A stretch of 64,000 bases of DNA, from the IMG/VR virus record IMGVR_UViG_3300028591_000109, positions 32,001-96,000 of that record. One strand, given 5' to 3'. The first letter of the stretch is position 1, and every line of letters begins with the position of its first letter. A program made the translations under genes and the position numbers. The notes beneath the pieces were generated by a model. The model saw only the letters and a program-made list of their open reading frames with translations. It did no database searches and had not been told where the DNA came from. This document shows positions 9,309 to 54,056 of the stretch, piece by piece. The DNA is from a virus (taxonomy: Duplodnaviria > Caudoviricetes).

Positions 9309-9414
9309 AGACTCGCTTTAGCGCTTTCATCAAGCGAAGCGACTGAAAGAATTTTTAAACATAATTTTTAACCAATTTCTCGCCGACAGGCGACTAAAAA
9401 CAAGAGCGACAACA

Positions 9415-9616: not shown

Positions 9617-10147
9617 ATGAAACAAGAGATTTTAATTGTGCCTTTTATAGGCGACGTGAAAGTGTCGAAGAACACCAACACGGTAACGGTAGACTATGAC
9701 AGGGCTAAATGGGGTGACAAGCTGAAAGGCTATAGGCTGATGGGCAAAGCCAACGAATGGCAGATGGTGGGTGAAGGAGTCCCGCACACCGACCCCAACG
9801 TGTGGAACTGGGAAACCTGCATCTCCGGGCGCATAGACACCGAGTTCGAGTCAGAAGATGAAGTGGCTGTGCTGTGCTTCTTCCTCAGAAAGGCCGGGGT
9901 GAGCTTTATGATATTGGTGGATAACGGCAAAGGGCGCTATCTGTTCATGCGCTGTCTCGATGCGAAGATCAATCTCAGTCCTTTCAGTCAGACTGTAGTA
10001 TTCTCCGGCGACGCCCCATACCCTTTCACCTATTTCGACGGCGAGGTTGAGGAAGCCGGCAGAGCCGTAGACCTGGCAGAAAAGTGTATCGAAGAAGGAC
10101 TTCGGCAAACACAGGTCTGGGAAAACATAATCGGCAGAAATCTCTGA
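9617..10147 (+). CDS. hypothetical protein
   Basis: AGAGCGATATG start. Confidence 0.7.
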   Translation: MKQEILIVPFIGDVKVSKNTNTVTVDYDRAKWGDKLKGYRLMGKANEWQMVGEGVPHTDPNVWNWETCISGRIDTEFESEDEVAVLCFFLRKAGVSFMILVDNGKGRYLFMRCLDAKINLSPFSQTVVFSGDAPYPFTYFDGEVEEAGRAVDLAEKCIEEGLRQTQVWENIIGRNL

Positions 10148-10212
10148 ATAATTTTTAATCCAATTTTTAACAAATTTCTCGCCGCAAGGCGATACAAAAA
10201 ACAAAGAGCGAT

Positions 10213-12627: not shown

Positions 12628-13536
12628 ATGAACAAAGACAAAAATCTCTACAAGATTGAGAACAAGCTCGGCATATTCTACATCGTAGCCGAAACGTTCG
12701 ACGAAGCCGCCAACGAACTGAAGGCGCGGCTCGACCAGGCCGACTACGGCTTCTTCCAGTACCGCGACATCCCGTCAATCGAGCACGTCGCCACGCAGTC
12801 GTTCTATATTGACGGCTCGAAGCAGTCGTTCTCCGACAGCAAGCCCAACCTCATTATCTCAGGCAGCGACCCAATCTGCCAGCGCGAGTTTGCCGAGCAG
12901 ATGGCTTTGAAGTGCGAGGAATATGAGAAGCTGAAGCATGACTATGACCAGATGGCGGCAGACCTGGCCGATGCCAACGAGCAACTGCTGAAGATGCAGG
13001 CCGAGGCAGAAAAGAAGCAGGAGGTGTATGACGACTACGTGGCCAAGGCAGAGAAAGCCTACGGCGACCTGCTCGACGAGAACCGACGGCTGGCAGAATC
13101 GACGGACGAACAGGAAAGTCTGCAGCATCTACAGCAGAAACTGGACGATGCGCTGGCTGAGAACCGCCAGCTGCACGAGCGGTTGAGCGGCGTGACCGCC
13201 ACTACTGGCTCCTACATGATAGCCGTGGAGCGCGAGCGGCAGGTAAAAGACGAAGGCTACAATGCCGAGCACGACCAGGCGCATGAGCCGATGACGCTGG
13301 CAAGAGCCGCCGTGAGCTATATCCTCTGCAACGACGAGAAGAAGCGCAAGATTGCCAAGACTACATACTGGCCGTGGGAGGACAAGTACTACAAGCCGCG
13401 CGACATGAAGCGCAATCTCATCCGCGCCGGTGCTCTCGTAGCTGCCGCCATCGACCGTCTGCTGGCCGAGGACATCCAGTCGCCCGTCGAGCCGTGCGAC
13501 AAATGTCCAGACGAAGTATCTCCCGATAATTTTTAA
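12628..13536 (+). CDS. coiled-coil phage protein
   Basis: Central coiled coil; C-terminal ERERQ..EG...EHD...WPW...RNLIRAGAL domain common in phages. Confidence 0.75.
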   Translation: MNKDKNLYKIENKLGIFYIVAETFDEAANELKARLDQADYGFFQYRDIPSIEHVATQSFYIDGSKQSFSDSKPNLIISGSDPICQREFAEQMALKCEEYEKLKHDYDQMAADLADANEQLLKMQAEAEKKQEVYDDYVAKAEKAYGDLLDENRRLAESTDEQESLQHLQQKLDDALAENRQLHERLSGVTATTGSYMIAVERERQVKDEGYNAEHDQAHEPMTLARAAVSYILCNDEKKRKIAKTTYWPWEDKYYKPRDMKRNLIRAGALVAAAIDRLLAEDIQSPVEPCDKCPDEVSPDNF

Positions 13537-13588
13537 CCCAATTTTTAACCAATTTCCCTGCGAAAGCAGGCAAAAACAAAAGAGCGAT

Positions 13589-19679: not shown

Positions 19680-20074
19680 AGATTATAGACCGCGAGACAT
19701 TCAAGCGGATGCCGAAAGGCACCGTGTTCTGCAAGTTCCCAAGGCTGAACAAGCAGACGAACAGCTACGACAACTATCTGTTCAGCATACAGACGCCCTG
19801 CATACTCGACGGGCCATGGGACGTGGACTTCTATAGCACGGAGATAGGCAACCTTGACGCCTGCGCCGCACAGTCTGATTCGGAGAACGACGACATCCTC
19901 ACAGACATGGAGCAGCATCTGGGCAAGGAATATCCCTTTGAGCACTGGACGGGGCGCGACGGCATGTTCGAGGACAACGACGAGGTGGGCTTTGCCATCT
20001 ACTCGCGTCAGGAGGTGCAGCAGATGATTGACCTGCTGCAGCAAGCCCTCAAAGACGGCTATCAAGAAGAATAA
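19676..20074 (+). CDS. hypothetical protein
   Basis: Start at ATGA overlap (MKIIDRETFKRMPKGTVF). Confidence 0.75.
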   Translation: MKIIDRETFKRMPKGTVFCKFPRLNKQTNSYDNYLFSIQTPCILDGPWDVDFYSTEIGNLDACAAQSDSENDDILTDMEQHLGKEYPFEHWTGRDGMFEDNDEVGFAIYSRQEVQQMIDLLQQALKDGYQEE

Positions 20075-20135
20075 TTTTTAATCTAATTTTTAACTAATTT
20101 CCCTGCGACAGCAGGCTTAAAAAACAAGAACGATT

Positions 20136-24293: not shown

Positions 24294-24381
24294 CGCTTAT
24301 TTCAGGCCGACAGGCCGAATAATTTTTAATCTAATTTTTGAATAATTTCTGCCCGACAGGGCATCCCAAAACAAGAAGACA

Positions 24382-48279: not shown

Positions 48280-48420
48280 CGCTTCACTTACATTCCAGAG
48301 AACTATAAATGTCTGCTGGTCGCGAAGAGGGCATATACTCCCTCCAGCCTCGGCTGGCAGACATTTCTGTGTTATGATGTAAGTGAAGCGACGGATTAAC
48401 AGGCTGGTGGGAGTTTTTTT
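48280..48420 (+). ncRNA. candidate ~140-nt structured, pseudoknotted RNA
   Basis: TACCTTTG promoter box at 48268; 14-bp outer stem, inner stem with G-U pairs, loop-tail pairing, T7 tract. Confidence 0.55.
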
Positions 48421-48460
48421 ATTTCCTTTCCGTCCACCACGGAAAGGTCTATCGAGAGGG

Positions 48461-49042
48461 TTATGCTGCGGATGTAACAGCAAGACGTGTAAGCAGCGAG
48501 CCGCTGACGGTCACTGCGCAAATCATTTCCGCAAGGAGCACGCCCTTGCCGTCGTACCATCGGGAGGGATAGATGCGTCCGTTATGAGAGGGCAGCGCGT
48601 CGCAGCCATAGACTGCCGCGAACAGCAGCCACGCCAGCAGCCACCACGGGCTGATGAGCAGCACGCAGGCCTGCGAGAGGATGCCGCCGAGGATGCCGAA
48701 GACGTTGTGTGCGCGACGATTAACGTGGCTGTCGCTGATGGGCATTGCCCCGCACAGCATCAGGCAGGCAAGAGTAGCGAAGGCGAGGATGCGCCAGTCG
48801 TCAGGCATCGCCGAGCTGAGAGGTATGCACGTGAGCAGGCTAACGGCCCAAATCCACACGATCCACAGCCACTGCCAGCCTCTGGGCAGCTCATAGACCA
48901 GCGCGGAGATGCTGTCGGGCAGAGCTGCGTTCAGCCGTTCGGAGTAACTCTCTGAAACATCAGTGTCGCGCCACCGCCTCCAGATGGCAGTCCCCACGTA
49001 GAGGACTGCCAGGAGGATGGAAGCTAATACAAGATACGTCAT
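48461..49042 (-). CDS. multi-pass membrane protein
   Basis: Five to six hydrophobic segments. Confidence 0.75.
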   Translation of the reverse strand: MTYLVLASILLAVLYVGTAIWRRWRDTDVSESYSERLNAALPDSISALVYELPRGWQWLWIVWIWAVSLLTCIPLSSAMPDDWRILAFATLACLMLCGAMPISDSHVNRRAHNVFGILGGILSQACVLLISPWWLLAWLLFAAVYGCDALPSHNGRIYPSRWYDGKGVLLAEMICAVTVSGSLLTRLAVTSAA

Positions 49043-49048
49043 AGGCGG

Positions 49049-49612
49049 TTACTCGGCTTGCTGGTTATCGTTCTGACTCTGCGACGGGAACAGGGCCTCG
49101 TAGGGAGCCCAGTCGATGGCATCCTTCTCCCGCCAGCCTGCGGCCAGCGTCTGGTTGATGTGGGCGACGGCCTTCACGTAGAAGTCCTGAGCGCCGGCCA
49201 TCGTCTCGAAGGTGTGGTAGACGGGCGTGCCGTCCTCCCGCTCGCCCAGCTTGAAGGTGACTGGCAGCGTCGCGCCCCCGGTCTGCACGGCGAGGTCGTA
49301 GGCCGCCTTGAAGTTGAACTGGTTCTCGCTGGAGAGCCACACAGAGACGGACTCCTCTGCGCCTTCGGGAGTCCATACGAAACCGGAGAGGATCTTCTCG
49401 TCGGTGCGGGCGTTGATGTCGGCAAGGATGGCGGCCTTCACGTCGGCAAACGAGATGGTGGCGTGCTGACGCTTGTAGAGGTAGACCTCATACCAGGAGG
49501 CAAGGCCGCCTGCCTGTTCAGGCTGCTGCAGTCCATAACATACGGTGACGCGCGAACCCTCGTCGCGCAGTGGAGCGTAGTCGCTCACGGGTCCTGTGGT
49601 CTTGTTCTTCAT
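49049..49612 (-). CDS. DUF4376-like tail-fibre-associated protein
   Basis: ILSGF.W...VWLS.ENQFN.KAAYDLA...LPVTFK pattern. Confidence 0.65.
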   Translation of the reverse strand: MKNKTTGPVSDYAPLRDEGSRVTVCYGLQQPEQAGGLASWYEVYLYKRQHATISFADVKAAILADINARTDEKILSGFVWTPEGAEESVSVWLSSENQFNFKAAYDLAVQTGGATLPVTFKLGEREDGTPVYHTFETMAGAQDFYVKAVAHINQTLAAGWREKDAIDWAPYEALFPSQSQNDNQQAE

Positions 49613-49699
49613 TGTGATAATTATTTAAATGGGTGAATAATGGTTTTATCGGGATGGCTGCGATGGTATCGCAGCATACTGGACGGAGGGAGATTTCCG

Positions 49700-50338
49700 C
49701 TATGCGGCTCGCTGCATACGGGTCATGTCGGCGTCGAAGTAGCCGATGCGCAGGTACTCGGGACGGAAAAACAGCTCGCGGCGCAGGCGGTAGCTGGCCG
49801 TCTGGCGCAGGATGCCGAGGTAGGAGTTGACCGTGCGCACCACCTTGTCGGGACGGTTGAAGTCCATCTCGCGCAGGTGGCGGCGTATGCGCTGCAGCGA
49901 GGTCAGGTTGCCGTGATCGTCGGGCATCTGGATGGGCACGTCAATGCGCCCGTCCTCCACGTCGCGCCAGTCGAGCACCAGTTCCTTGGGCAGGTACTTG
50001 TCGAACGACTTCTCCTGGAATCCCACGAAGATGTACTCGCCACCAATGTTCTTGGCGAATTTCTTCACTGCCGTGGGCGGAACAATCTCCATGTCGGGGT
50101 GCAGGCGCTTCATCTGCGAGGTGATGACCACGGCCACCAGCCACGCGCTCCACTCGTTGGCGTGCCAGTAGTTTCCGTCGCGCAGCAGGTGAACCACGTT
50201 CCACTTCTCAGGTTCCTTCCTGTCGGCCTCGATGGTTTGGATTTCCTGGTTGGTGAATCCCTTCCGCTCGCCCTGCTGCTTGGGCAGCTGGACTTTGGCA
50301 GACGGTTGGTTCTGTTGTTGTGTCTGTGTTGTTGACAT
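49700..50338 (-). pseudogene. in-frame fusion of DGR MutS-like (MSL) accessory N-terminus and reverse-transcriptase C-terminal remnant
   Basis: VHLLRDGNYWHANEWSAWL (MutS-I-like) joined near 49900 to VNSYLGILRQTASYRLRR (DGR RT thumb); no YxDD core. Confidence 0.7.
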
Positions 50339-50370
50339 ATCTCTATTTGTCTATTATTTTTTCTGTTGGT

Positions 50371-50442
50371 TTCCTTCGTCCGCCCCACTGCTGCTGTGCC
50401 GCGCTGGGGCGCGGCGGTGCAGCAGTGAAGCGCACGAAGGAA
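50371..50442 (-). repeat. long hairpin downstream of DGR target B
   Basis: TTCCTTCGT..CACTGCTGC..GCCGCGC / GCGCGGC..GCAGCAGTG..ACGAAGGAA; identical to 51909-51980. Confidence 0.8.
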
Positions 50443-50459
50443 TGGTTCGGGCGGAAGTA

Positions 50460-51353
50460 TTACTGGACCGGCCGAACCGGGAAACCGCAGTACCGATCGT
50501 ACGCGCCCTGCGGGCGGACACCATTGGGATAGAAGTACAGGCCCCGGGCGTGGCGAGCCGAATCGAACGTCGACGACCAGAAGTAGCCACTGCCCGTGCG
50601 ATTGACCCACGAACGGCCATAGCCGAGACCGGACGCCGGAAAGAAAAGAAGATTACCGTTGATCTTCGAGCGCAGATAGAGACCGTTGATGCCGTTCACC
50701 GTCACGCGCTTGTCGGCAGCCTTCTTGGCGATGCTGGTCTCTGCCGTCACCACGTTGCCGTCGGCGTCGATGTAGTCGATATTGGCGAACAGCTCCGCGA
50801 AGTCTTCATTGCTTGGCATGCGCCAGGGGGCACCGAGGCAGGCGCGGGCGGCGTCCATCGAGGGAGGTATATTTCCCGTGAGCGTATTACCCGGCGTGTC
50901 GCCGTACACCTGTCCGTCGTACCACGGCTCTGCGGAGTTCACGCTGCCCCAGTTGTAGTCAAAGGCTGATGTGCTGCTGGGATTGTGTCCGTCGGTGTTG
51001 CCCCACGAGAAGAATGAGCACTCGTACTTGAAGGGCGATACTGCGCCGTCCACCTCCTGGAATTTCGACGCCGTGGCGAGGTCGATGGAGGCCTTGGCCC
51101 AGAGCACGCCGGAGGGCAGGCCCATGTCTACGAAGAGGTCGGTATCGACGTAGGGCTTCTGGTATTCCAGGATGTCGCTGAGTTTCTTGCCCGTCTTCAG
51201 GTCAATAACGGCATCCGTCGAGAGGGGCGTCTTGTTGGCGGGCGTACCGTCGTCGTTGAAGAGCATCACCTGTTGAGTTTTGCCGGCGGTGGTGGCTGCC
51301 GTGAGGCCGCTCTGCACGGCCTTCAGGGCGTTAAGTTTGGTAATTGTTTCCAT
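50460..51353 (-). CDS. DGR target protein B (CLec-fold, DLGLPSG-type) with C-terminal variable repeat
   Basis: VDMGLPSGVLWA, WRMPS, FFPASG, YFWSST, GFPVRPV; variable codons at 50487-50627. Confidence 0.88.
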   Translation of the reverse strand: METITKLNALKAVQSGLTAATTAGKTQQVMLFNDDGTPANKTPLSTDAVIDLKTGKKLSDILEYQKPYVDTDLFVDMGLPSGVLWAKASIDLATASKFQEVDGAVSPFKYECSFFSWGNTDGHNPSSTSAFDYNWGSVNSAEPWYDGQVYGDTPGNTLTGNIPPSMDAARACLGAPWRMPSNEDFAELFANIDYIDADGNVVTAETSIAKKAADKRVTVNGINGLYLRSKINGNLLFFPASGLGYGRSWVNRTGSGYFWSSTFDSARHARGLYFYPNGVRPQGAYDRYCGFPVRPVQ

Positions 51354-51433
51354 TGCTGTGTTGTATTGTTTCGTTGTTTACTGTTTCTTTTACAAAGAAG
51401 ATTGCGGCGGTGCCGTCGACGGCATCCCGTCGG

Positions 51434-51883
51434 CTATGCGCTGACCACCACCGTGCGGATCATCAGTTCGGCCACGGCCTGCAGCAGCTGCTGGCGGGTG
51501 TACTGCTGCCCGTTGGCAGTGTATGTCTCGCCCTCTAATGCCGTTATCCGTGCGTTGAGTTGGCTGACCCAGTACTCTATGCTTGCGTCGGTGAATATCT
51601 CCCACCCCTCATTGGGCGCCGGGTCGGTGACGACGAACGAGCGCTTACCGTTGACGATGTTCACCACGAACTGGCCGTTCTGCACCGTCAGCGTGCAGGG
51701 CAGGTTCTGCGTAGCGGCGGTGGCGCGGTAGAGCACGCCGTTGATGCCTACAACGGCGTTATTCGGGAACGTCGATGCAGGCGTGAGCGTCGAGATGTCC
51801 ACAGGCAGCAATGCCCCTGCCTCATAAGCCATCTGCAGCTGCCCGAGGTTGACGGCCTTTTCAAGAGTGTTATTGCTTGGCAT
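51434..51883 (-). CDS. tail-associated hypothetical protein, paralog of 52965..53411
   Basis: Near-identical first ~55 codons and similar C-terminus. Confidence 0.8.
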   Translation of the reverse strand: MPSNNTLEKAVNLGQLQMAYEAGALLPVDISTLTPASTFPNNAVVGINGVLYRATAATQNLPCTLTVQNGQFVVNIVNGKRSFVVTDPAPNEGWEIFTDASIEYWVSQLNARITALEGETYTANGQQYTRQQLLQAVAELMIRTVVVSA

Positions 51884-51908
51884 ATTCTTGTTTTATTTTT
51901 CTATTGGT

Positions 51909-51980
51909 TTCCTTCGTCCGCCCCACTGCTGCTGTGCCGCGCTGGGGCGCGGCGGTGCAGCAGTGAAGCGCACGAAGGAA
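51909..51980 (-). repeat. long hairpin downstream of DGR target A
   Basis: Identical to 50371-50442. Confidence 0.8.
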
Positions 51981-51997
51981 TGGTTCGGGCGGAAGTA

Positions 51998-52903
51998 TTA
52001 CTGGACCGGCCGAACCGGGAAACCGTTGGACCGATTGATCGCGTACTGCGGGTTGACACCACCGGGATAGAAGTTCAGGCTCCGGGCGAGGCGAGCCGAA
52101 CTGAACGTCGACGACCAGAAGTAGCCATTGCCCGTGCGATTGGTCCACGAACGGCCATTGCCGAAACCGGACGCCGGAAAGAAAAGAAGATTACCGTTGA
52201 TCTTCGAGCGCAGGTAGAGGCCGTTGATGCCGTTCACCGTCACGCGCTTGTCGGCAGCCGTCTTGGCGATGCTGGTCTCTGCCGTCACCACGTTGCCGTC
52301 GGCGTCGATGTAGTCGATATTGGCGAACAGCTCCGTGAAGTCCTCATTGCTCGGCATGCGCCAGGGCGCACCGAGGCAGGCGCGGGCGGCGTCCATCGAG
52401 GGCGGAATGTTGCCCGTGAGCGTATTACCCGGCGTGTCGCCGTACACCTGTCCGTCGTAGTAGGGCTCCTGCTCGTTCACGCCGCCCCAGTTGTAATCAA
52501 AAGCGGATGTACTGCTGGGATTGTGTCCGTCGGTGTTGCCCCAAGAGAAGAATGAGCACTCGTACTTGAAGGGCGATACTGCGCCGTCCACCTCCTGGAA
52601 TTTCGACGTCGTGGTGAGGTCGATGGAGGCCTTGGCCCAGAGCACGCCGGAGGGCAGGCCCATGTCTACGAAGAGGTCGCTGTCGACGTATGGCTTCTGG
52701 TATTCCAGGATGTCGCTGAGTTTCTTGCCCGTCTTCAGGTCGATGACGGCATCGGTCGAGAGGGGCGTCTTGCCGTTAGGTGCTCCGTCGGGTCCGAAGA
52801 GCATCTGTGTCTGTGTCTTCAACGCCGTGTCTTGCGCCGTGAGTCCGCTCTGCACGGTCTTCAGCGCTTGTTGAATGGTTACTGTTCCAACATTGTCTGC
52901 CAT
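51998..52903 (-). CDS. DGR target protein A with C-terminal variable repeat
   Basis: Paralog of 50460..51353; variable codons at 52025-52165. Confidence 0.88.
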   Translation of the reverse strand: MADNVGTVTIQQALKTVQSGLTAQDTALKTQTQMLFGPDGAPNGKTPLSTDAVIDLKTGKKLSDILEYQKPYVDSDLFVDMGLPSGVLWAKASIDLTTTSKFQEVDGAVSPFKYECSFFSWGNTDGHNPSSTSAFDYNWGGVNEQEPYYDGQVYGDTPGNTLTGNIPPSMDAARACLGAPWRMPSNEDFTELFANIDYIDADGNVVTAETSIAKTAADKRVTVNGINGLYLRSKINGNLLFFPASGFGNGRSWTNRTGNGYFWSSTFSSARLARSLNFYPGGVNPQYAINRSNGFPVRPVQ

Positions 52904-52964
52904 AATTGTATTGCTTTTTTGTTTTCGTTATTACGTTATATCGTTATTTCATGAGCCACAATGG

Positions 52965-53411
52965 TCACTGCGTGACAATGGTTTTATCCATCAGCTCGGC
53001 CACGGCCTGCAGTAACTGTCGGCGCGTATATTGTTTTCCGTTGGCGGTGTAGGTCTCGGTCTCCAGTGCCGAGATTCTTTGGTCGGCCAGCGAGTAGGCG
53101 TAGGCCATGCCCGCGTCCATCCACACCTCCCAGTCGGCGTTGACGGTCATGTCCTGCACGACGAAGGCCTGCTGTCCGTTCACCTCATGGGTGACGAACT
53201 TGCCGTCGCTCACCACCATCGTCAGCGGCATCGAGGCCGTGGCCCGCTTGGCGCGGTAGAGCACGCCGCCGATGCCGATGACGGCGTTCTTCGGGAACGT
53301 CGATGCAGGCGTGAGCGTCGAGATGTCTACGGGCAGCAATGCCCCCGCCTCATAAGCCATCTGCAGCTGCCCGAGGTTGACGGCCTTTTTAAGAGTGTTA
53401 TTGCTTGGCAT
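52965..53411 (-). CDS. tail-associated hypothetical protein, paralog of 51434..51883
   Basis: MPSNNTL.KAVNLGQLQMAYEAG shared start. Confidence 0.8.
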   Translation of the reverse strand: MPSNNTLKKAVNLGQLQMAYEAGALLPVDISTLTPASTFPKNAVIGIGGVLYRAKRATASMPLTMVVSDGKFVTHEVNGQQAFVVQDMTVNADWEVWMDAGMAYAYSLADQRISALETETYTANGKQYTRRQLLQAVAELMDKTIVTQ

Positions 53412-53483
53412 ATTCTTGTTTTGCTGTTAAGGGTGAAGAAAGGAGAGTCCGGACTTTCCGGGCTCTCCGTGAGCGGAGGAGGT

Positions 53484-54056
53484 TTACTCGCCTGCGGGCA
53501 GTCCGAGGGCGGTGCGCACCTCGGCGTCGGTGGCGAACTCGCCCACGATGTAGCCGGCCTCAGAGTGGTTGCCCCAGCCGTAGGCAGTGTCGGCGTTTGT
53601 CAGCGTGGTCTGCACGCCGCTCACCAGCTTGGCCTTGGTGATGGTGCCGTCGGTGGCGGTCACGGTCACCTCGTGGGTCGTCGGGTCGATGTTCACGACG
53701 AACATGTCGCCCGTCTGCGAGCCGCTGGTGACGTACTCGATCAGGCCCGAAACGTCAACATACTGATACTCGGCAGTGTCGCCCGTGGGGGCTACGTTCA
53801 CCTTCAGGAAGGTGCCGGGGGTGCCCTCGCCGTCAGCGGCCACGATGCCGATGATGTTGTTAACGTAGTCCTTCGGAATGTTGATGGTTCCGATGGTCAC
53901 GCCACCCTTCTTGATGATGGTACTTGACAGGACACCCTCGCCCGGAGTACCGGCTTCGATGGTGATGTCCTTTGCTGCGCCTGCAGCGTCGATGGCCTGC
54001 TTGATGAGGGCCAGGTGCGCCATGTTAAGGGCACTGTTAGCATTGGTCTTTGCCAT
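53484..54056 (-). CDS. putative virion structural protein
   Basis: Thr/Gly-rich, GTINIPKD and VDVSGLIEYVTSG motifs, high codon bias. Confidence 0.65.
   Translation of the reverse strand: MAKTNANSALNMAHLALIKQAIDAAGAAKDITIEAGTPGEGVLSSTIIKKGGVTIGTINIPKDYVNNIIGIVAADGEGTPGTFLKVNVAPTGDTAEYQYVDVSGLIEYVTSGSQTGDMFVVNIDPTTHEVTVTATDGTITKAKLVSGVQTTLTNADTAYGWGNHSEAGYIVGEFATDAEVRTALGLPAGE

Follow-up and report, generated by a model that had tools for sequence, protein, structure and literature searches.

A probable DGR remnant in a complete high-GC phage genome, with an in-frame accessory-RT chimera beside two apparently frozen targets

The closest described counterparts of the locus presented here are the decayed DGRs of crAss-like phages, where in Epsilonunovirus the DGR "RT gene" was reported to be "fragmented or deleted" (PMC11054128; also cited in PMC12386605). 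What the two have in common is a tail-fibre-type target that has kept its VR, an RT that is deleted or fragmented, and retrohoming that is read as ended. The present locus differs in belonging to an unrelated clade (55.7% GC, 141.5 kb), for which the GenBank phage set gave no match either by megablast of positions 49000-53500 or by tblastn of the 212-aa ORF described below, and in combining breakpoints resolved to the nucleotide, an open accessory-RT chimera and two duplicated targets. Deletion or fragmentation of a phage DGR RT being already known (PMC11054128), what is new here is a well-resolved case in an unrelated high-GC clade; the deleted DGR reveals no new mechanism.

A second point of reference is the DGR of Bordetella phage BPP-1 (mtd-avd-TR-brt), with which the locus shares a C-terminal VR in a lectin-like receptor-binding protein, adenine-specific differences between TR and VR, a GC-rich 3' end and, past the VR, a hairpin, hairpin/cruciform target recognition being listed for DGRs (PMC3240598). 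In contrast to BPP-1, the hairpin is far longer (72 nt), RT and TR are both absent, and the accessory gene appears to be MutS-I-like instead of Avd, with no Avd detected by Pfam in the intact relatives. MutS-I-like accessory proteins form the MSL class, whose members range in size from 112 to 283 aa (PMC5758913) and include Msl of Bacteroides DGRs (bioRxiv 10.1101/2024.11.15.621889); the published MSL DGRs (16/16) all carry avd as well (Wu et al. 2018, PMC5758913).

The window analysed in this work is a stretch of 64,000 nt, bases 32001-96000 of a 141,567-nt IMG/VR virus record (IMGVR_UViG_3300028591_000109) rated 100% complete by CheckV. We propose, with a probability of roughly 0.85, that the locus in Table 1 is the remnant of a phage DGR in which a deletion of ~1.62 kb switched retrohoming off and left two VRs frozen. 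In three relatives, L004 (a 4.5 kb contig), L007 (64 kb, IMG/VR) and L008 (134 kb, IMG/VR, complete), the gene order is target, 226-aa accessory gene, TR, RT and DUF4376 gene; the accessory gene thus sits between target and TR, as it similarly does in L001-L003, and in L008 the RT is an uninterrupted 398-aa protein with GNLTSQ and YVDD. The ancestor of the window would have had the same layout of target gene, 226-aa MutS-I-like accessory gene, TR and 398-aa RT. The window aligns to L004 in two collinear blocks, 51329-49902 with L004 1024-2447 and 49902-49553 with L004 4107-4456, and the same two-block collinearity was found with L007 and L008. The DUF4376 gene provides a synteny anchor, because it also follows the intact RT in L008.

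Table 1. Features of the DGR remnant, with positions in the 64,000-nt window
Feature	Position	Strand	Description
DUF4376 gene	49049..49612	minus	Directly downstream of the chimeric ORF
Chimeric ORF	49700..50338	minus	212 aa; ATG start, ends on the RT's own TAG stop; order: accessory N-domain, 4-residue RT motif-4 scrap (best reading), RT C-terminal 66 aa
RT-derived part	49700..49900	minus	S147-A212 and stop; corresponds to RT aa 333-398 (end of thumb)
Junction	49897..49913	minus	17 nt, identical to the motif-4 stretch (IGNLTSQ region) of the RT in L001, L007 and L008
Accessory-gene part	49910..50338	minus	aa 1-143; complete MutS-domain-I-like N-domain of the 226-aa accessory protein
Hairpin 1	50371..50442	minus	72 nt, GC-rich; begins 20 nt past the stop of target gene 1; DNA fold -37.6 kcal/mol, z = -9.2
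DGR target gene 1	50460..51353	minus	297 aa; weak Fib_succ_major / C-type-lectin-like C-terminus
VR1	50463-50625		In target gene 1; another 21 nt that match the TR lie at 50629-50649
Partner ORF of cassette 1	51434..51883	minus	149 aa; part of the 1.5-kb tandem duplication
Hairpin 2	51909..51980	minus	Identical copy, after target gene 2
DGR target gene 2	51998..52903	minus	301 aa
VR2	52001-52163		In target gene 2; 21-nt block at 52167-52187
Partner ORF of cassette 2	52965..53411	minus	148 aa

The chimeric ORF is directly preceded, in the upstream direction of its own strand, by two paralogous cassettes that each consist of a 148/149-aa ORF and a 297/301-aa gene. Sequence comparison indicates that they arose by tandem duplication of 1.5 kb, and since a single region in L007 and L008 aligns to both cassettes (50358-53422), the two-target state would represent a lineage-specific duplication whose VRs diversified separately afterwards. 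The C-terminal 56 codons of the two target genes differ at 15 codons, at codon positions 1-2 only, and 19/21 differences between VR1 and VR2 fall on TR adenines, which account for 22% of sites. When the VRs were aligned to the template repeat of a close relative (L004 2907-3069), mismatches were located at adenines in 21 of 29 cases for VR1 and 12 of 18 for VR2. Both targets have their VR at the C-terminus, in a lectin-like fold supported by a weak Fib_succ_major match (E 1e-4 to 2e-3, which does not reach the cut-off), together with a GC-rich 3' end and a hairpin, the latter contained within ~95 identical nt that follow each stop codon. Judged by these features, the two genes are real DGR targets, and the hairpin is an intact cis element such as DGR target recognition requires.

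No RT and no TR were found anywhere in the complete genome. A search of all 141,567 nt for RVT_1 gave no candidate, and the same search scored above the cut-off in 4/4 related viral records; tblastn with the RT of a relative matched only a 67-aa tail (aa 332-398). There is no YxDD motif in the window or in the whole genome, and blastn at word size 7 returned VR1 and VR2 only, with no TR or third VR copy in the genome. This genome has neither an RT with motif 4 (GxxxSQ) and YxDD nor a TR differing from the VR mainly at adenines, both of which a functional DGR would have, and in the absence of both RT and TR mutagenic retrohoming from this genome is impossible. The first-pass annotation, made from the window sequence, had reported intact cis signals but neither YxDD nor TR, and had proposed an in-frame deletion that removed the TR and the RT core. 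Both cassettes indeed have an intact GC-rich 3' end of the VR and an intact 72-nt hairpin, identical between the two, the lack of YxDD and TR extends to the whole genome, and the deletion is borne out by comparison of the intact relatives with this complete genome.

In the place where an accessory gene, a TR and an RT would be expected the window contains, as had been noticed at first pass, a single 212-aa ORF, which is an in-frame chimera of the accessory gene and the RT C-terminus. Its first ~145 and last ~67 residues had been ascribed to these two sources, and both ascriptions hold. Residues 1-146 share 96% identity with 226-aa accessory proteins (P0002), residues 1-143 being protein-identical to the accessory protein of L004 (L004:2011-2691), while residues 146-212 match the C-termini of two RVT_1-bearing proteins at 91% (P0040) and 66% (P0046) identity. 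The RT-derived part is 91% identical to L004 and L005, and in a multiple alignment it pairs with the extreme C-terminus of 398-aa DGR RTs bearing IGNLTSQ and YVDD. Among 5.8 billion clustered proteins no full-length relative of the ORF was found besides itself; partial matches cover ~58-73% (N part) or ~30-35% (C part) of it, with ~40 proteins of 208-250 aa matching the N part alone, and the conserved 212-aa family that the annotation had named as evidence against a deletion did not emerge. Pfam returned 0 families for the ORF at E<=1, including no RVT_1 palm/fingers (PF00078), and PHROGs gave no match.

At the protein level the join reads PDDHG/NLTS/LQRIRR (49913-49897), which refines its earlier placement between PDDHGNLT and SLQRIRR (~49900). 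The DNA at this point is …CACGGC AAC CTG ACC TCG CTG CAG…, and accessory genes have GAG CTG ACC TAT (or ACA TAC) in the same place. Relative to L008, 1,621 nt are missing, with the loss of residues 144-226 of the accessory protein, of the spacer and TR, and of two stretches of the RT, residues 1-237 (fingers and palm motifs 1-3) and residues 242-333 (YVDD and motifs 5-7). The codons N144-S147 (49909-49898) are best read as a scrap of the RT retained between two deletion junctions; a side remark at first pass had already suggested that GNLTS might derive from RT motif 4, and this is consistent both with the 17-nt exact match to L001, L007 and L008 and with the occurrence of N at the position in 0/26 accessory homologs, nearly all of which carry E. 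Alignment to the intact relatives, proposed in the annotation as the way to define breakpoints and microhomology, points to CGGC and CCTCGC. We infer that the ~1.62 kb was deleted from the ancestral DGR probably via two junctions at these short codon-aligned microhomologies. Junction 1 would have linked codon GGC143 of the accessory gene to codon GGC237 of the RT via CGGC, inside the similar peptides GELT and GNLT, and junction 2 would have linked RT TCG241 to TCG333 via CCTCGC with removal of 276 nt including YVDD, leaving a 12-nt scrap of RT motif 4 between the two. As both microhomologies are codon-aligned, no selection would be needed to account for a 212-aa frame that is open from the accessory start to the RT stop. 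Cut-and-join between two CTGCAG sites near the breakpoints was also considered and was rejected, the predicted product (…ELTYERLQRIRR…) differing from the observed sequence.

The two-junction reading hangs on 2 nt (GAG to AAC) beyond what a single junction would be expected to give. A single deletion through one junction (microhomology CCT), followed by two substitutions that converted GAG (E144) to AAC and made the motif-4 match coincidental, gains from the fact that compound deletions are less common than single ones and that the native accessory GELT is already the same as RT motif 4 at 12/14 nt, so that just these 2 nt need explaining. However, both changes fall in one codon and both produce the exact RT bases, in a region with 1 other mismatch in ~60 nt, and the lack of N at this position in all of the homologs weighs in the same direction. 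As a rough judgement, two junctions are probably favoured over one by ~10-20 to 1, and we consider the single deletion unlikely.

The RT may have been inactivated before the deletion took place, given that the nearest relative by accessory gene, L004, has an RT with a premature TAG; because the motif-4 scrap carries the variant of L001, L007 and L008 (CTG) and not that of L004 (TTG), we go no further than to infer this order. In L004 and L005, which are close relatives from different samples, the in-frame TAG takes the very place of the invariant Q in RT motif 4, directly after GNLTS (L004:3836-3838 and L005:1181-1183), and splits the RT into ORFs of 241 and 143 aa, which looks like a second, independent route of DGR inactivation. 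Recoding of TAG as Q, which would apply to these in-frame codons and to read-through of the fusion TAG, was rejected on four grounds: in-frame TAG is not enriched over TGA or TAA; TAG terminates 33 long ORFs; the sole Gln tRNA has the anticodon CTG both in the window's genome and in an intact relative, with no suppressor tRNA found; and TAG is the RT's own stop codon and also that of neighbouring genes. In L002, a 1.8-kb contig, the repeat at the TR position (1162-1327) has 22 adenines against 38-40 in other TRs, and of the 28 sites at which it departs from the consensus TR, 19 are TR adenines, a pattern that mutagenised cDNA written back over the TR itself might leave; it could alternatively be a VR/TR assembly chimera. 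It is a possibility that the clade sheds DGRs repeatedly by different routes (the deletion in the window, the TAG in L004 and L005, the adenine-depleted TR in L002), and if true this would imply a recurring cost of keeping a DGR. We regard as rather unlikely the wider set of proposals to which such shedding belongs, the others being that the RT-less lineage is occasionally diversified in trans as a DGR "cheater" that keeps the cis signals only, or that the chimera has acquired a role, possibly by interfering with the DGRs of relatives or with mismatch handling.

The first-pass annotation had offered two outcomes for the targets, frozen or served in trans, of which the former is favoured here and the latter, though possible, drew no support. 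VR2 is nucleotide-identical in three contigs from other metagenomes, L015 (JGI 3300024345; 100% over 3,475 nt), L016 (JGI 3300037675; 2 SNPs elsewhere) and L014 (Logan SRR10838683; 7 SNPs elsewhere), although contigs 99.7-100% identical to the window leave little time for diversification to show and so limit the power of this comparison. The exact VR2 protein recurs as well, and the invariance of VR1 is based solely on two contigs with a record of its exact protein. These comparisons cover assembled contigs, and a sample may still contain a minor intact allele or slight heterogeneity in its VRs. More distant 301-aa homologs each have a unique VR, with 16-22 of 57 residues different, and L007 and L008 differ from one another at TR-adenine positions. 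Continued diversification by a host element, or by an intact relative that co-infects and contributes its RT, TR and accessory protein, would accept the deletion as real and make the phage an RT-less free-rider instead of a frozen lineage. In the Bordetella phage DGR, TR and RT given in trans can drive retrohoming, and this precedent is joined by the preservation of the cis signals, by TRs of relatives that are 86-90% identical to the VRs with an identical 3' end of ~24 nt, and by the occurrence of the intact-type L002 in a sample with an ENA accession near the one for the deletion allele. Set against these points, VR2 is unchanged in the three contigs despite their SNPs elsewhere (7 in L014, 0 in L015 and 2 in L016), the exact VR1 and VR2 proteins recur, and no variant VR was found on a near-identical backbone, and we judge diversification in trans to be improbable.

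Under the preferred reading of a frozen remnant, the two targets would have diversified separately before the loss and would now be fixed alleles. The intact cis elements and the lack of decay in either half of the chimera suggest that the loss was recent relative to the divergence of the clade. The locus would then represent a natural phage DGR knock-out, with intact cis signals, two fixed receptor-binding alleles and close relatives that have a working cassette, and the two forms offer a convenient pair with which to ask what a DGR costs and brings a gut or rumen phage, and whether targets without an RT are served in trans. It also carries a warning for annotation, in that a DGR cannot be taken as live on the strength of a VR signature alone.

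The chimera itself is most likely a by-product, presumably expressed but without function. Retention of the frame for a function, whether through a MutS-I-like domain acting on mismatched DNA, a dominant-negative inhibitor of the DGRs of relatives, or an open frame that preserves downstream expression, would fit with a reading frame that stays open across two junctions, with the survival of the whole accessory N-domain, and with the codon differences from L004, which in the 143 codons of the accessory part are 13 synonymous and 0 non-synonymous (those of the RT part from L006 are 8 and 1). The codon-aligned microhomologies would yield an open frame without selection, however, and the synonymous-only pattern mostly dates from the time before the deletion. 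Furthermore, the chimera lacks the C-terminal helices of the accessory protein and every catalytic motif of the RT, and no such fusion occurs in any other lineage among the 5.8 billion clustered proteins, so that taken jointly these three functional options are very improbable.

An assembly artefact, in the form of a collapse or a chimeric join at short repeats, is scarcely credible even though two short chimeric contigs (L006 and L017) break near the same sites and suggest a region prone to odd joins, since two further datasets have contigs on which the identical 212-aa protein is called (ENA ERZ27256846 with two long contigs, of which one has 135,167 nt and the same gene order, and SRR8436538 with a Logan contig; the JGI and ENA assemblies may not be independent in their underlying samples), microhomologies of 4-6 nt are much shorter than the k-mers that assemblers use, and both flanks are collinear with relatives. 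In L006 (1-904) the 5' part of a bacterial uvrB is joined to the RT tail at the same GCCTCG site as in the window, the best genome match of the uvrB half being just 66% identical, and in L017 (1-669) the accessory gene, up to codon 148, is joined to the tail of a cytidine-deaminase-like gene. These chimeras may reflect a hot spot of recombination, the capture of host DNA, in which case the two might be opposite ends of a single insertion, or an artefact.

The accessory protein fits the MSL class (Wu et al.; Msl of Bacteroides DGRs) as far as its position and a structural model indicate. Like MSL proteins it is small, its 226 aa lying within their size range, and is encoded beside the TR and RT. 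An AlphaFold model built from 25 homologs (pLDDT 84-93 over residues 30-160) predicts that residues 28-135 form an alpha/beta N-domain, which VIA superposed on domain I of the E. coli, Taq and human MutS proteins (Z 4-5.5); for E. coli MutS residues 12-110 the values are Z 5.5 and rmsd 3.4 Å over 82 aligned residues. A domain-only model of lower confidence (pLDDT 65) reached Z 3.5 with MutS, tied with PAS domains, and Foldseek gave MutS a probability of 0.3-0.4. With the whole model, Foldseek against the PDB found nothing at E<=0.001, and the VIA "wide" search was swamped by the C-terminal helical hairpin. Pfam MutS_I (PF01624) did not match the accessory protein, and this family is found in 13% of members of the neighbouring Atlas cluster; a search with the intact accessory profile against PDB sequences gave one match, at E 0.17, which was discarded as chance. 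In addition to the missing Pfam match, the locus differs from MSL systems in that no avd was found and that the window keeps the N-domain only. In the intact cassettes (L008:2900-7900; also L004 and L007) no Avd was detected beside the MutS-I-like accessory gene, the DGR neighbourhood of L008 containing no Avd-like family by Pfam, although Avd is poorly conserved. The intact cassettes may therefore represent an Avd-less MSL architecture.

Beside the DGR remnant, a 193-aa membrane-protein gene (48461-49042) lies within ~0.8 kb (48280-49085) that has no counterpart in L007 and L008, where the flanks of this segment are only ~230 nt apart, which looks like an insertion or replacement. Elsewhere in the window, five copies of a 67-nt intergenic motif (9341-9407, 10140-10206, 13518-13584, 20063-20129 and 24311-24377) each have an AT-rich AATAATTTTTAA…AATTTTTAAC box and, after it, a short GC hairpin; situated in a plus-strand gene block, the motif resembles a phage promoter/terminator unit. 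Outside the window, a candidate tmRNA with the tag AKVVDMTPRAQMLAAA (G000:C1:16461-16768; predicted by ARAGORN, and perhaps a false call) adjoins tRNA-Gln(CTG) and tRNA-Met.
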